Shown here: one piece after another, positions 33,001 to 39,000 of the stretch | How the letters are laid out: each line of letters starts with the position of its first letter | How positions within the stretch are numbered: position 1 is the first letter of the stretch | Source of the DNA: Planctomycetota bacterium | Lineage (GTDB): Bacteria; Planctomycetota; JAJSAM01; JAJVHW01 | Direction: 5' to 3' | Length of the DNA: 64,000 bases | Assembly: GCA_965248445.1 (NCBI GenBank) | Contig: CBDFJG010000003.1 | Location: 832,001 to 896,000 of the forward strand | Program-made: the position numbers

Positions 33001-36000
33001 CATGGACTACGAGACCGTCGGCGAGCACCAGTGGGAGGAGACGGGCATCTTCCACTTCATGGAGGAGATGCCGACCGAGGTGCTGGCGGGCGCGCGCTTC
33101 GCGTTCCGCACACCGTCCGAGGTGGCCGACGAGCAGCCGGCGACGGAGGTCCTCGAGATCCCCCACCCGGTGTCGTGGGCGGACGCCGAGCGCGATCTGT
33201 CCGCCTGGCTCGGCAATCCCATGCAGCGCGCCGCGCACGAAGCGCTCTACGAGCTGTACGCACCCGTCGTCGCGACCGGGTCGCCGGATCTGCTCGAACG
33301 GTGGCGCCGGCTGTCGACGTCGGACCACGTCTATTACATGTGCACGAAGGGCTGGTCGGACGGCGACGTGCACGCGTACTTCAGCCCTTACGAATCACCC
33401 CACGAAGCGCACGTCACGTTCATGAACGTGCTGGACGACCTGGCCCGCCGGGCCGGGGCTGCCTGAGGACTGCATGCCGGACTCGATCATCCCCGGACCC
33501 ACCCTTTTCGAGATCAGCTGGGAGGTCGCCCACCGCGTCGGCGGCATCCACACGGTCGTCTCCACCAAGGCGCGGACGCTCGCCGCGCGCTATCAGGGGG
33601 AACACCGCGACGACTACGTCGTGATCGGCCCCTGGCTGCTCGAACAGCACGATCCCGACGCGGTCCTCGACCCCGAACCTGCGTACGCGGACTTCGAGGA
33701 GTCCTGCCGCAAGCTGGGACTGCCGGTGCGCGTGGGCCGGTGGCGCGTACCGGGGCGGCCGCTCACGATCCTCGTGGAGTTCTCGTCCCTCTACGATCGC
33801 AAGGACGAGATCCTCGCCGATCTGTGGACGGAGCATCAGGTCGACTCCCTGTTCGGCGGCTGGTCGTACGTGGAGCCGGTGCTGTTCGGGCACGCCGCCG
33901 GCATGGTGATCGAGCACTGGTGGCGCGAGGTCGTGAACGGGCGCCGGCGCATCGCCGTCGTGCAGGCGCACGAGTGGATGACCGGCGCGGCGCTGATGTA
34001 CCTGTCGCGGCGGGTCCCCGAGATCGGAACCGTCTTCACGACCCACGCGACGGTCATCGGGCGCGCCGCCGCCGAGCGCGGTCTGCTCGGTGAGAACGCG
34101 CTCGGCGGCAAGACCCCGGCGGAGGCCGCCGCCGACCTCGGCGTGCGCGCCCGGCACTCCATCGAGGCGGCGTCCGCGCGACTGGCCGACGTCTTCACGA
34201 CGGTGAGCCGGATCGCAGCAGCGGAAGCCGCTGTCTTCCACGAACGCATCCCCGATCCGGTCCTGCCCAACGGCCTCGATCCCGACGTCCTCGCCGCGCG
34301 CATCGAGGGCGCCTCGCAGGAGACGGCGGCGGGCCGGCTGCGCGACGTCGCGTCACGCTTCCTCGGCGAGGACATGAGCGATGCAGCCGTCGTCTGCATG
34401 AGCGGACGCTACGAGTTCCGCAACAAGGGCATCGACGTCACGCTCGAGGCAGCCGCGGCTCTCAACCGGGAGCCGGGCCGCACGATCGTGCTGTTCCTGC
34501 TCGTGCCCGCCGGCAACTCGGGGTTGCGCCGGCGGGTGTCGGAGCGTCTCGCGGCCGCGGAGCCGGAGGGCGGCGGTCCAATCGGCATCTCGCTGCACCA
34601 CCTGCACGACTCCGACGGCGACCCGATCCTCGGGCGCTGCACCGAACTGGGCCTCGACAACGCACCCGGCTCGCGTGTGCGCATCGTGTTCTGGTCCGAC
34701 TATCTGCAGCCGGGGGACGGCATTCTCGGGCTGCGCTACGAGGCTGTGCTGCAGGGCGCCGACGCCACGTGCTTCCCGTCCTACTACGAGGCGTGGGGGT
34801 ACACGCCGCAGGAGAGCCTGGCCCTGGGCGTGCCGACCATCACCACCGACCTTGCAGGCTTCGGCCGCTGGGCGCAGGAGGAGGGTCTGGCCGGAGGCGA
34901 CTGCACGGTCGTGCTGGCACGACGGGATCGGGACGACGCCGACGTCGCCTTGGAGCTTGCCGCGACGCTCGAACGGCTGACGGACGCCGGCGTCGACCGC
35001 AAGACGCTGAACGACTGCTGTCGCACGGTCACGGCCGCCACGAACTGGTCCAAGCTGATCTCGGCGTACGACGACGCGCACGCCCGCGCCGCCGCCGCGG
35101 CGCAGGCGCGTGCGAGATCGCTGCCGGGCCCCCCGCCCAGTCATCGAGTGCCCGTGCGCTCGGCCGGTCAGAACGGTCGGCCACACGTGTTCGCACTGGA
35201 CGTCGAGACGCGCATCCCTCCGGCCATCGCGGGACTCGAGGAAATCGCGTCGAACTGGTGGTGGACGTCGGATGCGGCCGCGACGGCACTGTTCGAGGAG
35301 GTCTGCCCGGCGACCTGGGAGCGCGTCCGGCGCGCACCGATCCGGCTGCTGCGCGAGACGCAGCCCGCACGTCTCGAGGAACTGGCCTCGGACACCGAGT
35401 TCGTGGCGCGCGTCGACGAGACGGTCTCGCGTCTGCGGGCGTACCGCTCGCAAGCGCTGGACGAGCGCAACGTGTCGGCGCACCGGCCGGTCGCGTACGT
35501 CTGCGCCGAGTTCGGGCTCCACGAGTCGTTCCCGATCTACAGCGGCGGCCTCGGCGTGCTGGCCGGCGACCACCTCCGCGCGGCGAGCGACCTGGGCGTG
35601 CCGCTCGTCGCAGTCGGCCTGCTCTACAGGGCCGGCTACATGCGTCAGCGCCTGCGCGGGGGCATTCAGCAGGAGACCGAACCCGAGCGCGTGGATCCCG
35701 CCGACCTCCCTCTCACTGCCGCCGTAGACGCCGATGGCCGACCCGTCGAGGTCACGCTGCAACTGCCCGGCAGCGAGGTCGTCCTGCGCGCGTGGCGCAC
35801 GGACGTCGGCCGCGTACCGCTCTACCTGCTGGACGCCGACGTGCCGTCGAACCGGCAGGATGATCGGACCCTCACGCGGTCGTTGTACGACGGCGACCAG
35901 AGCATGCGTATTCGCCAGGAGATCGTGCTCGGTCTTGGCAGCGTACGGCTGCTGCGTGCCCTCGGCATCGAGCCGAGCGTTTACCACGTCAACGAGGGCC

Positions 36001-39000
36001 ACGGCGCGTTCACGGCGCTCGAGCGCGTGCACTGGCTCTTGCGGAACACGGGACTCAGCTTCGAGACCGCGCACGAGACCGTCCGCGCCACGACCGTCTT
36101 CACGACGCACACGCCCGTGCCCGCCGGACACGATGAATTCCCCGAAGACCTCGTGCGACGGTACTTCGGACACGCCGACCGCTGGTCCGGCGTGCCCTGG
36201 GAGCGCTTCATGGCTCTCGGAGAGGCAGTCGACAAGCCGGGCCAGTTCAACATGACCGGCCTGGCAGTGCGCTTCGCCGCGCGCGTCAACGGCGTGAGCG
36301 AGAGGCACGCCGAGGTGTCGCGGCCGCTGCTGCAGCGGTTTGCGCCGCAACTCATGGCAAGCGAGGTGCCGGTCCACTCCGTCACCAACGGCGTGCACCT
36401 CGGGCTGTGGACGCGGCCCGCGACGCGCGACGCCCTCGGCGCGTCGCGGTTCGATACGCTTGCCGATGCGTTCCGCGGCGCGACCGATTCGAGTGACGCT
36501 GCGCTCTGGCAGATGCGTGAGACGCTACGCAGCGACCTCCGCACGCACCTGATCGCGCACCTGCACAAGTCGTTCGCAGAACAGGGCGATTCGCCGGCGC
36601 TGCTCGGGCGCATCGAGGAGCAGCTGAAGCCGGACGCGCTCTACATCGGGTTCGCGCGGCGCTTCGCGACGTACAAGCGCGCAGGCCTCGTGTTCAGCGA
36701 GCCGGACCGCCTGCTCGACCTCCTCGACGATCCGGACCGGCCGGTGCGGCTTGTCATCGCGGGCAAGGCGCACCCGCGCGACACGGAGGCGCAGGAACTG
36801 CTCGCGCGCATCGGCACTCTCGCGCGTGACCCGCGATTCGTGGGACGCGTGATCGTGCTCGAGAACTACGACATGGGGGTCGCCCGCTGGCTCGTCGCGG
36901 GCGTGGACCTCTGGCTGAACACACCGAGGCGCCCCCTCGAGGCGAGTGGCACATCCGGGATGAAGGCGGCGGCCAACGGGGTCCTGAACCTGTCCGTCGG
37001 CGACGGCTGGTGGCTCGAGGGCGCCGACGGCGCCAACGGCTGGACCATCGGAGGCGATCACGGGCGGGACGCGACACCGGCGAACGATGCGCTGCACGAC
37101 GCGCACGACGCGACCAGCCTTCTCGGCCTCCTGCGGCACGAGGTGATCCCCGCGTTCTTCGAGCGCGACCAGCACGGACGGCCACCCGCGTGGCTGGCGC
37201 TCGTGCGCCGGTGCCTCGTCTCGCTGCCGCCGGCATTCGACGCCGCCCGGATGGTTGCGGAGTACCGCGAGTGGGCGTACGAACCGCTCGCGTCGGCCCA
37301 CGCGGACCTGGCACGCGACCGTTACAACGGCGCACGCGACGCTTTCCACGACCTGGAACGCGTCCGCCGCACGCTTCCGGCTGCGCGGATCACGTCGGCG
37401 TCCATCGGCGATGCGCACAGCGTCACCGTCGGCGACCGCCTGGAGGTCGAAGTCGAGATCGAACTCGGAGAACTCACCGACGGCGACGTCGTCGTCGAGG
37501 CGCTCGTCGGCCGCCGCGCGGACGACGGCGGCTTGGCCGAGGTCGAAGCCGTCCGCCTGACTCCGGACGGCGTGTCCGCCGCCGGCCACGCCCGCTACGT
37601 GGGAGCGTTGACCCCCCGCGAAGCGGGAGCCCTCGGGTATGCCGTGCGCATCCGACCCGACCGCGCCGGCGGCCCCGCGTTCGACGACCCCGTCGTCTGG
37701 GCCTGACCCCGCCATACCGAGACCGGTGACATGCGGCTACTCGTAGCGCAGCAGCCGGTGCGCAAGCTCTGCGTCGCGATCGACCTGCGCCAGGCTCTCG
37801 TGGACCAGGTAGAGCTCCCACGCCGCCGAGTCGAGGTCGCGGGTCAGTGGCGCCCGCGTCCCGGTCGGACGCAGCTTCCCGAAATCGTCGAAGGACGGGA
37901 GCGCGCGCACGTCGTCGGCGCCGAGCACGCGCCGGATGCGCGGCAGCTCGCGGGGTTGGATGCCGTGCACGACACGCGCTTCGAGCCGGTCATACCGCTC
38001 GAGATTGACGTCGCTCGACCTGAGCGGCATGTCGGCGAGGTAGTGGCACGCGGCCAATTCGAGCAGGTTGCGGCCGTGCAACTTCGATGCGAGGATCGCC
38101 AGGTTCCCGCCCGAGAAGCGTGCTCCGACCTCGATGAGACAAGGGCCGCGGTCGTCGACCTTGACCTCCATGTGAATCGGGCAGCGCCGCAGGCCGAGCG
38201 TCTCGACGACCTGCGCCGCGTAGGCACTCACGCGGCCGAACGCCGGCGCGGCCGTCCCGATCTTGAACGTCTGATAGAAGAGATTTGGGATGCCGTGGCT
38301 CGCACGGCGGTCGTAGACCCAGACGTCCGTCACGAGCACGTTGCTCGCCGCGTCCACCAGGCCGTTGATCACGAACTCCTCCCCACCGACGAACTCCTCC
38401 AGCAGCACCTCGCCGCTGCCGCTCTCGAGCACGCGCTGGCAGTCTCGGAGCAGTGCCTGGTCGGTCGCCGGGAAATAGACGTCCTCCGAACCCGAGCCGG
38501 CCGTGGGTTTGACGACGATGGGCCAACGCCCCAGCCGCCGCTGGAACGCGAGGGCGTCCTCGCCGCCGGTGGCGACGGCAGATGCATTCACACGGGCGCT
38601 CCCGTGCTCGCGCAGCCACGCCTTCATCACCGCCTTGTCCCGGCATCGCTCCATCACGCGCACTGAGTTCCAGTCGAGACCGAGGAGATCGCTCAGTCGG
38701 GCACCGTGCAGCACGGTCTCCTCGTCCCACGGGATGACGCCCTCGAGCACGGGGAAGTGCGCGTGGATCTCGGCGGCCAGCGCGCGCGTGCTCGGGAACT
38801 GCGCGGCCCGGTAAGTGGCGACGACGTACTCGCCCAGCTCCCGCGACCACTTGTCGCGCCAGAGGACGTACCGCATCTCGTCGGTGAACACGGCGACCGC
38901 GGCCTTGCCCACGCTGCCGCCCAGGAACTGCAGCAGTTCCCGCGGGTACTGGCCGACGGGGTCGAGGATCAGGTACGGCATAGTTCCGTTCAGACGTACC

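Follow-up and report, generated by a model that had tools for sequence, protein, structure and literature searches.

A planctomycete frame joining a GT3 glycogen synthase to a GT35 alpha-glucan phosphorylase closes a conserved alpha-glucan operon

The window analysed here, a stretch of 64,000 nucleotides of planctomycete DNA, holds a gene in which an enzyme predicted to build alpha-1,4-glucan chains and an enzyme predicted to break them seem to be one polypeptide. This raises the questions of whether the two parts truly belong to one protein, whether both could work, and what such a protein would do in the cell.

One frame encodes both enzymes

By translating the locus, we found that 33474-37706 on the + strand is a single uninterrupted open reading frame of 1410 aa with zero internal stops, as the initial annotation had stated, and both domains were matched in it.

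33474..37706, + strand: complete fusion gene of 1410 aa with its stop codon, predicted glycogen synthase/phosphorylase of the K16153 type
33510..35093, + strand: GT3 glycogen synthase domain with GT-B fold, residues 13-540 (PF05693, phmmer, AF2 model, Foldseek)
35094..35213, + strand: inter-domain tether, residues about 541-580, of low complexity and rich in Ala, Pro, Arg, Ser and Gly
35214..35528, + strand: DUF3417 alpha-helical N-terminal phosphorylase domain, residues 581-685 (PF11897)
35490..37283, + strand: GT35 phosphorylase catalytic core, residues 673-1270 (TIGR02094)
37284..37703, + strand: C-terminal beta-sheet domain of clade 2 type, residues about 1271-1410 (ScGP alignment, PF28476)

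The Pfam spans reported earlier (residues 13-348 and a second GT3 stretch, 581-685 and 836-1180) were reproduced in our search. We searched the whole genome (5.40 Mb in 4 contigs, 92.1% complete, so that "only" means the only one found) and observed that PF00343, TIGR02094 and PF05693 each match the fusion frame alone. Within that scope, the sole GT3 detected is the N-terminal half of the fusion, and the claim that its phosphorylase is the only one of the genome is upheld.

Such a frame could be an artefact, that is two neighbouring genes merged by an assembly or sequencing error, and adjacent split versions do occur elsewhere, with 1-3 same-frame stops within the tether in 4/42 loci. However, the 400-residue stretch that spans the junction is matched over its whole length in 43/401 sampled Planctomycetota genomes (this genome included), each time within one frame of 1374-1913 aa that lacks stops, which repeats an earlier junction survey on a larger sample. 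The same single frame was found in 58/62 checked loci and in 41 of the best 150 cluster representatives at 50% identity, and we regard the chance of an artefact as close to negligible. A single-frame fusion is also present in 38/80 loci from named genomes, 34 of these 38 being from Bacteroidota, and the best 120 database matches are all full-length fusions of 1358-1562 aa.

In a tree of the GT35 parts, those of fused proteins all fall on one side of a single branch, with split forms, such as the one of a Phocaeicola vulgatus genome, nested within the fused group. Since split forms persist in nature, the fusion is not required for function.

Both halves keep their active-site residues

The GT3 half matches PF05693 (Glycogen_syn) with 250.9 bits for a cut-off of 27, its best stretch covering model positions 1-342 and a second one model positions 413-583. 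It also matches yeast Gsy2p and human GYS1 in phmmer (E about 1e-64). Its AF2 model is confident (pLDDT 91.0) and, when submitted to Foldseek, returned eukaryotic GT3 synthases at all of ranks 1-38 (E 1e-39 to 1.4e-44), the top GT5 match being far below them (E 2e-17). A residue-for-residue alignment to Gsy2p indicates that the motifs HEW, TTHAT..GR, GRYEFRNKG and E-X7-E are retained; we take the HEW Glu, the Arg and Lys of GRYExxNKG and the E-X7-E pair to be catalytic or nucleotide-sugar-binding residues, as in the yeast enzyme. At the position of the yeast "FHPEF" His, the window protein has a Trp, and this position varies across the family in an alignment of 30 fusions.

The same alignment to Gsy2p revealed none of the eukaryote-type regulatory apparatus in the GT3 half. 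About 60 yeast residues between positions 364 and 425, which we take to be the tetramer interface, are absent, and beyond residue 469 the alignment is no longer confident; the yeast segment after this insert presumably holds the glucose-6-phosphate-sensing arginine cluster. Eukaryotic GT3 tails carry phosphorylation sites, and no such tail is evident here either. To judge from the sequence comparison, these absences bear on regulation and not on membership of GT3.

On the phosphorylase side, DUF3417 (PF11897) scores 87.2 bits for a cut-off of 25, over a stretch that aligns with the N-terminal part of ScGP, the Segatella copri phosphorylase (9l6i). The catalytic core matches TIGR02094, "alpha-glucan family phosphorylase", with 707.7 bits at residues 673-1270 (cut-off 191.7), in agreement with the NCBIfam name given before, and the Pfam Phosphorylase domain lies at residues 836-1180. 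The Thermococcales maltodextrin phosphorylase equivalog (NF041129) was set aside: at 685.2 bits, below its cut-off of 1500, the protein is related to that group and not a member of it. The motifs HTPVPAGHD, RRFATYK and TSGMK, the last with the PLP lysine, line up with ScGP. This alignment extends to query residue 819 of 834, and thus through the region of the C-terminal domain, for which the precomputed Pfam list gives PF28476 (GlgP_C).

We then looked at conservation in 30 diverse fusions that are 32-49% identical to the window protein. In the GT3 half, H166, K318 and E447 are conserved in 30/30, and E167, R312 and E439 in 27-29/30; in the GT35 half, all 30 have the PLP lysine (K1164) as well as H879, and 27-29/30 have R1062, R1063 and K1068. 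Key residues of each half being kept in 27-30 of 30 such proteins indicates that selection acts on both active sites. By contrast, the segment between the conserved A539 and L588 is unconserved in the same fusions; it is 39-60 residues long, polar or small residues make up 63-78% of it, and residues 557-576 are modelled with a pLDDT below 50. The tether being unconserved, no fixed contact of the two halves is indicated.

The fusion gene is the last of a conserved operon

The frame closes a run of same-strand glucan genes, as previously noted, and a glgC and GT5 glgA pair lies 10 kb upstream of it, which domain matches also bear out.

20492-21856 and about 21865-23304, + strand: glgC and GT5 glgA pair, context, from domain matches
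29056..31050, + strand: GH133-type amylo-alpha-1,6-glucosidase (GDE_N + GDE_C), first operon gene, chosen start
31047..32243, + strand: GT4 glycosyltransferase (GT4/GT5-like; Glycos_transf_1, Glyco_transf_4), chosen start overlapping the upstream stop
32240..33466 (alternative ATG start 32189), + strand: GH57 enzyme, directly upstream of the fusion (PF03065, 223.4 bits)

The stops and starts of these operon genes overlap or are 7 nt apart, the fusion gene coming last. The first gene matches GDE_C (303.4 bits), GDE_N (186.3 bits) and TIGR01561, "archaeal type" (245.7 bits). TIGR01531, the two-activity eukaryotic debranching enzyme, was rejected, since it matches over model positions 1167-1438 alone and reaches 61.9 bits where its cut-off is 1399.55. 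Hence, of the "eukaryote-type debranching enzyme" first proposed, the debranching glucosidase stands, but only as the GH133 glucosidase part and of archaeal type. The GT4 gene reaches 135 bits with glgA_Coryne, under the cut-off of 302, and among solved structures it comes closest to GlgM, a maltose-1-phosphate synthase (6tvp, E 2.4e-22). The GH57 gene, the sole GH57 found in the genome, gave no match in a PDB search by sequence; its AF2 model (pLDDT 88.1) has as top Foldseek matches GH57 branching enzymes and a 4-alpha-glucanotransferase (TM 0.62-0.69, 13-17% identity), and we consider it a candidate branching enzyme on the basis of this model.

Among named genomes, the GDE-GT4-GH57 trio is adjacent to the gene in 23/43 GT3-bearing loci, and in 6 more the GH57 gene is at a cut contig edge, while neither GDE nor GH57 was found near a stand-alone phosphorylase (0/37 loci). 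Beside the gene, the trio is complete in 12 of the 20 fetched Planctomycetota loci and partly present in another 7. The GH133-GT4-GH57-fusion operon of four genes is thus conserved across Planctomycetota and Bacteroidota. A glgC-like gene adjoins it in 2/20 Planctomycetota loci. In our genome, glgC carries NTP_transferase and LbH_GLGC, and the frame with glgA (20869-23304) matches Glyco_transf_5 from ORF residue 333 onwards, with 228.8 bits. The genome also encodes a UDP-sugar pyrophosphorylase of eukaryote type (PF01704), as do 343/401 Planctomycetota genomes, whether or not the fusion is present.

What the fused enzyme may do

We favour, with a probability of roughly 0.6, a bifunctional member of K16153, made of GT3, tether and clade 2 GT35, that is the last gene of a portable alpha-glucan operon common to Planctomycetota and Bacteroidota. 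Both halves are likely active, judging from their conserved residues. The GT3 half would act as a retaining glucosyltransferase, adding glucose from NDP-glucose to the non-reducing ends of alpha-1,4 chains, and the GT35 half, linked to it by a flexible stretch of some 40 residues, would remove the same chain ends as glucose-1-phosphate in a PLP-dependent reaction. As no second phosphorylase turned up in the genome, degradation presumably depends on the fusion.

ScGP has been demonstrated to be an active pentamer that binds glycogen and is inhibited by AMP (PMC12912991). By analogy with this homologue, and because the eukaryotic insert is missing, the synthase half probably needs the phosphorylase half in order to assemble and to sit on the glycogen particle. 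A synthase tethered to a phosphorylase could run a futile cycle. E. coli co-transcribes glgA and glgP, and by a similar logic we infer that metabolites (NDP-glucose versus phosphate) and effectors, AMP for example, would set the net direction, and not separate expression.

The risk of a futile cycle is also what would speak for one half being a silent pseudoenzyme, serving as a scaffold or sensor that places or regulates the other half; silencing one of two opposed activities would avoid the cycle, and a separate GT5 synthase already exists in the genome. Considering that the window protein, like 27-30 of the 30 diverse fusions, retains the key residues at both active sites, and that no other phosphorylase was found, we hold this to be very unlikely. 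The presence of two synthase systems 10 kb apart can also be read differently, with glgC-glgA making storage glycogen and the operon serving some other alpha-glucan, such as a capsular one or a short one of methylglucose type. The kinship of the GT4 with GlgM, which is not a glycogen synthase, fits this, and mycobacterial GT4 and GH57 pairs serve methylglucose lipopolysaccharide synthesis. However, all the operon families are standard families of glycogen turnover, the scanned ORFs show neither a methyltransferase nor an acyltransferase next to the operon, and Bacteroidota accumulate glycogen with GT3 enzymes, so that we judge another product quite unlikely.

The phosphorylase half may instead work mainly in synthesis or as a primer or anchor, extending or holding short maltooligosaccharides from glucose-1-phosphate so that GT3 can start without glycogenin. 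In agreement with this, no member of the glycogenin family GT8 (PF01501) was found by profile search in the 92.1%-complete genome, the only phosphorylase found is the fused one, and the operon includes a GT4. Moreover, eukaryotic GT3 synthases need a primer made by glycogenin (PMC11046441), and in vitro ScGP also runs in reverse, towards synthesis, but with a reported kcat far smaller than that of other phosphorylases (PMC12912991). A phosphorylase confined to synthesis would leave no phosphorolytic route, yet the debranching glucosidase of the operon implies degradation. The genome also has a GT5 GlgA, and GT5 GlgA enzymes can self-prime. We therefore consider a mainly synthetic or priming role unlikely and retain the bifunctional reading.

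Comparison with known systems

The architecture is already known, and the novelty implied at first did not hold, whereas the earlier remarks that the fusion is widely distributed in the phylum and may be on record were both right: it is found in Bacteroidota too, and KEGG K16153, "glycogen phosphorylase/synthase [EC 2.4.1.1 2.4.1.11]", is a catalogued name (in a table of PMC8307300). JGI product names on homologues that share 50-55% identity with the window protein read "phosphorylase/glycogen(starch) synthase" and "glycogen phosphorylase/synthase". In K16153, too, GT3 precedes GT35 and the length is about 1400 aa, with no architectural difference; by its single-frame architecture and these homologue names, the fusion is taken to be of the K16153 type. 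In the literature searched, we found no published enzymology of K16153 or assay of any fused member. Our analysis adds the conserved operon, the kept catalytic residues, the pattern of the GT35 tree and ScGP as a likely split descendant.

The GT3 half belongs to the same family as the eukaryotic GT3 enzymes (Gsy2p, GYS1 and C. elegans GSY-1) and shares their GT-B fold and catalytic motifs, at a Foldseek E of 1.4e-44, a TM of about 0.76 and 26-27% identity. ScGP (PDB 9L6I and related), a "clade 2" phosphorylase, aligns with residues 579-1395 of the window protein (E 1.4e-152), but is a stand-alone protein of 852 aa, whereas the window phosphorylase is half of a 1410-aa fusion. For ScGP, H316, R507, R508 and K513 are named as phosphate or substrate residues, and clade 2 enzymes have an extra C-terminal beta-sheet domain (PMC12912991). 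R1138, which corresponds to the ScGP R583 needed for the AMP-driven decamer, is Arg in 16/30 and Lys in 8/30 fusions. ScGP is probably a split descendant of Bacteroidales fusions, because it scores much higher with a split Bacteroidaceae phosphorylase (1236.8 bits) and a fused Dysgonomonas domain (912.5 bits) than with the window domain (513 bits), and because that split form sits among fused forms in the tree.

Finally, the three families of the trio also occur together in archaea. In Sulfolobus acidocaldarius, glycogen falls strongly when the GH57 "amylase" is lost and rises when GH133 is lost, and a Picrophilus torridus cluster combines GT4, GH133 and GH57 (PMC11046441, Figure 7). No GT3::GT35 fusion is described alongside that archaeal cluster in the accessible part of PMC11046441, whereas in the operon analysed here the trio has a fixed position upstream of the fusion gene.

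The synthase-phosphorylase gene and its operon

The gene analysed here encodes a GT3 glycogen synthase half (residues 13-540), a tether and a GT35 phosphorylase half (residues 581-1395). It closes an operon whose first three genes (hereafter, the trio) code for a debranching glucosidase (GDE), a GT4 transferase and a GH57 enzyme. The corresponding features are:

20492-21856, + strand: glgC, with glgA 10-13 kb upstream of the fusion
about 21865-23304, + strand: glgA (GT5), adjoining glgC
29056-31050, + strand: GDE_N+GDE_C amylo-alpha-1,6-glucosidase, operon gene
31047-32243, + strand: GT4 transferase, its start overlapping the stop of the GDE gene
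32240 or 32189 to 33466, + strand: GH57 enzyme, its stop 7 nt before the fusion start
33474-37706, + strand: fusion gene, single frame with ATG start, 1410 codons and no internal stops

By searching Pfam, we assigned residues 13-348 to PF05693 (Glycogen_syn, 250.9 bits), which matches again over model positions 413-583; residues 581-685 belong to DUF3417 and 836-1180 to Phosphorylase. In NCBIfam, TIGR02094 ("alpha-glucan family phosphorylase") scored 707.7 bits across 673-1270, while the equivalog for Thermococcales maltodextrin phosphorylase stayed below threshold (685 bits against a cut-off of 1500). These assignments agree with the initial annotation, which had described a 1410-aa GT3+GT35 fusion in one frame. 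It had also called this protein the only phosphorylase of the genome, and in a profile search of that genome (5.40 Mb, 4 contigs, 92.1% complete) PF00343, TIGR02094 and PF05693 each matched the fusion frame alone. Both the glgC-glgA(GT5) pair that it had placed 10 kb upstream, which shares the strand of the fusion, and the same-strand run of debranching enzyme, transferase and GH57 directly before the fusion were located. The description of the debranching enzyme as "eukaryote-type" fits in part only: it is indeed a debranching gene, but a glucosidase-only one of the "archaeal type" (TIGR01561, 245.7 bits), the match to the eukaryotic model TIGR01531 being confined to model positions 1167-1438.

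The closest solved relative of the GT4 transferase is the maltose-1-phosphate synthase GlgM (E 2.4e-22). A 2024 Chem Rev review (PMC11046441) reports that the same trio is clustered in the archaeon Picrophilus torridus, and says of the GT4 in that setting that its role "requires clarification". The operon GH57 had no match among PDB sequences with phmmer. Its structure model (AF2) reached a pLDDT of 88.1, and naming its activity from the fold was abandoned, as branching enzymes, 4-alpha-glucanotransferase, amylopullulanases and alpha-amylase topped the Foldseek search with similar scores. A scan of 27500-39500 found no promoter or terminator, and such a scan is uninformative at 66-72% G+C. An ORF of 311 aa (37731-38666, +) begins 24 nt past the fusion stop and matches no Pfam family; it may be spurious in this G+C-rich DNA or a fifth operon gene. 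Further downstream lie two adjacent ORFs of the ATP-grasp family (38990-40231 and 40239-41507, both -). Two PF00756 "putative esterase" ORFs (23581-25083 and 25644-27116, both -) separate glgC-glgA from the operon.

A eukaryotic-type synthase tethered to a clade 2 phosphorylase

Alignment of the synthase half to its human (GYS1) and yeast (Gsy2p) counterparts gave E values of about 1e-64, and the motifs HEW, TTHAT..GR, GRYEFRNKG and E-X7-E are all present. Its structure model, built from 43 sequences, had a pLDDT of 91.0, residues 557-576 forming the sole long stretch of low confidence. By using this model in Foldseek, we observed that ranks 1 to 38 were all eukaryotic GT3 synthases (best E 1.4e-44), compared with E 2e-17 for the best GT5 enzyme. 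However, about 60 residues of yeast Gsy2p have no counterpart in the window protein, and the confident alignment stops at 469. In eukaryotic synthases the absent segment is the insert that forms the tetramer interface, and a later segment together with the tails serves glucose-6-phosphate and phosphorylation control. In the alignment to Gsy2p and GYS1, the synthase half showed no sign of the tetramer insert or of the glucose-6-phosphate and phosphorylation elements.

Residues 579-1395 matched ScGP, the stand-alone glycogen phosphorylase of Segatella copri (PDB 9L6I), at E 1.4e-152. [quoted passage not shown] The ScGP residues named there (H316, R507, R508, K513, Y512 and R583) are all identical in the window protein. 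Among 30 full-length fusions (32-49% identity to the window protein), 16 have Arg at the position of R583 and 8 have Lys. In the same aligned set, 39-60 unconserved and mainly polar or small residues separate the conserved anchors A539 and L588. This segment acts like a tether whose length is fairly uniform.

The fusion is widespread and already catalogued

The best 120 of 7770 database matches (E <= 1e-10, among 8000 candidates scored) were all 1358-1562 aa long, with a query coverage of 95-100%, and many of them carry JGI names such as "phosphorylase/glycogen(starch) synthase" or "glycogen phosphorylase/synthase". KEGG holds the class K16153, "glycogen phosphorylase/synthase [EC 2.4.1.1 2.4.1.11]", found in a table of PMC8307300 and in the KO list of PMC11093988, both of which only list the KO number. 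The architecture is thus already known from a KEGG class and annotation names, and is not new as a discovery. When residues 301-900 were searched against 1.84 billion cluster representatives, 1371 matches reached E <= 1e-30, and the junction was spanned in one stretch in 41 of the best 150. In the ESM Atlas, clusters of about 1415 aa combine these three families; one of the clusters comprises 709 members, with Bacteroidota as the commonest phylum.

The initial annotation had cautioned that the fusion is spread through the phylum, and this proved right. With the 400 residues across the GT3/GT35 border (401-800) as query, 222 of 401 sampled Planctomycetota genomes gave a match, and at least 43, including the one studied here, aligned over the whole query in frames of 1374-1913 aa that contain no stop. 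The remaining 179 mostly matched the phosphorylase part only, among the matches listed. In loci from named genomes, 42 of 80 held both parts. A single frame without stops joins them in 38, of which 34 are from Bacteroidota, 3 from Planctomycetota and 1 from a genome labelled Desulfovibrionaceae. Among these Bacteroidota are Dysgonomonas, Alistipes, Rikenellaceae, Muribaculaceae, Lentimicrobiaceae and a Flavobacteriales MAG. The Desulfovibrionaceae-labelled MAG (L055) carries the full operon with the fusion, and a Syntrophales-labelled MAG (L068) has a GH57 gene and a GT3 start at a contig end; both genomes are labelled Thermodesulfobacteriota, and either gene transfer or mis-binning may account for them.

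Among loci of named genomes that bear a GT3 part (43 in all), the trio adjoins the gene in 23, mostly upstream, and downstream in Alistipes/Rikenellaceae. In 6 others GH57 lies at a cut contig edge, and in 14 no trio member occurs within the examined stretch. Neither GDE nor GH57 was found near a stand-alone phosphorylase (0/37 loci). In Planctomycetota, where we sampled 20 of the 42 other fusion genomes, the full trio lies upstream in 12 loci and GT4-GH57 only in 2. Four are variants in which GDE comes directly upstream and GH57 is absent or lies elsewhere; two of the four also have a glgC-like gene alongside. A contig end limits the last 2.

A possible single fusion and repeated fission

In an unrooted tree of 106 GT35 domains made by a quick method (FastTree), with stand-alone proteins picked by similarity to the window protein, a single branch with a support of 100 parted 58 fused or adjacent-split domains from 48 stand-alone ones. 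The four adjacent-split domains fell inside the fused group, in two places. In the GT3 tree (74 rows), 19 non-fused proteins were dispersed among fused ones, requiring 5 changes. This pattern is consistent with a single old fusion and repeated later fission. The other four of the 42 loci with both parts, all from named Bacteroidota (L048, at 8001-12266, L052, L053 and L089), have them in the same frame with 1-3 stops inside the tether, as if an ancestral fusion had been split in place; the first three form one clade in the GT35 tree. In a Phocaeicola vulgatus-labelled genome, the phosphorylase occupies an 882-aa frame. The score of ScGP was 1236.8 bits with this split phosphorylase and fell to 912.5 with a fused Dysgonomonas domain, 655 with a stand-alone enzyme of Gemmataceae and 513 with the window domain. 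Given this order, ScGP, the one characterised relative, probably descends from Bacteroidales fusions.

Another genome of the window's order (G220) has the synthase side of the junction in a 1065-aa frame (C9:25350-25937), far longer than a bare GT3 domain, and the phosphorylase side in an 831-aa frame of a different contig (C203:5994-6647), which may represent a split form within this order.

The alpha-glucan toolkit of the genome

In this 92.1% complete genome we found no GH13 (PF00128), GlgB (TIGR01515), GH77 or GT8, and one GH57 of roughly 400 aa, that of the operon. The detected toolkit therefore consists of glgC, glgA(GT5) and the operon, and GH57 is the only candidate branching enzyme found. 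An organism with glgC-glgA(GT5) and no detected GH13 branching enzyme is unusual. We dropped the argument that GH57 replaces GlgB, since GlgB is only mildly depleted phylum-wide: it scored above cut-off in 7 of 43 fusion genomes versus 128 of 358 others among the sampled Planctomycetota. Within the window's order the two had seemed complementary, with GlgB found in 0/8 and 0/5 genomes of the two fusion-bearing families and in 3/4 of a third family. Phylum-wide co-occurrence thus gives no clear support for GH57 as the brancher.

Outside the window, a eukaryote-type UDP-sugar pyrophosphorylase (PF01704, 107.6 bits) lies in a 477-aa frame (C3:715313-716224, -; locus L021), and no GalU scored above cut-off in the genome. 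PF01704 was rejected as a fusion-linked UDP-glucose supply: present in 343 of 401 sampled Planctomycetota, it says nothing specific about the fusion. None of 14 control prokaryote genomes has this family. Two of the 20 Planctomycetota loci have a glgC-like gene directly next to the operon (L112:14498-15712 and L116:13610-14740, from Planctomycetota families f53 and f45), with 32-34% identity to the window glgC, which hints that the sugar donor of the module need not be UDP-glucose.

A putative bifunctional enzyme

We favour, with a probability of roughly 0.6, a bifunctional enzyme in which both halves would work at the same non-reducing chain ends. In this reading assembly and glycogen binding would come from the phosphorylase half, and metabolite levels and effectors would set the net direction. 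An unlikely alternative is that one half is silent. Across the 30 aligned fusions, H166, K318 and E447 of the synthase half and H879 and the PLP lysine K1164 of the phosphorylase half are conserved in all 30, while E167, R312 and E439, and likewise R1062, R1063 and K1068, are conserved in 27-29. An artefactual fusion is a very unlikely alternative; the feature is real, intact and an ordinary member of its family.

Less probably than the favoured reading, the phosphorylase half may serve as a primer or an anchor. Finally, and also with low probability, the operon might serve a non-storage glucan. Literature searches, covering main texts and 300,000 of the 445,374 characters of PMC11046441, found no assay of any fused member; that portion of the review mentions GT3 in PVC bacteria and no fusion.

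In many Planctomycetota, the fusion provides the only phosphorylase and one of two synthases, and abundant Bacteroidota of gut and rumen, such as Alistipes, Rikenellaceae and Muribaculaceae, carry it as well. Organisms bearing it probably bank and spend carbon through a protein that has apparently never been purified, and a builder tethered to a breaker offers a natural test of how futile cycles are avoided. With no GH13 detected in the genome, the operon around the fusion offers a compact and possibly complete alternative glycogen system. By analogy with ScGP, we also considered a switch within one polypeptide, which we think unlikely: a phosphorylase ring oligomer would sit on the glycogen particle with one tethered synthase per subunit, and an effector-driven change of assembly, such as AMP-induced stacking, would shut one activity and free the other. 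If true, the same chain ends would be built up and broken down under reciprocal control without kinases, a bacterial parallel to the way in which animals regulate glycogen synthase and phosphorylase reciprocally.
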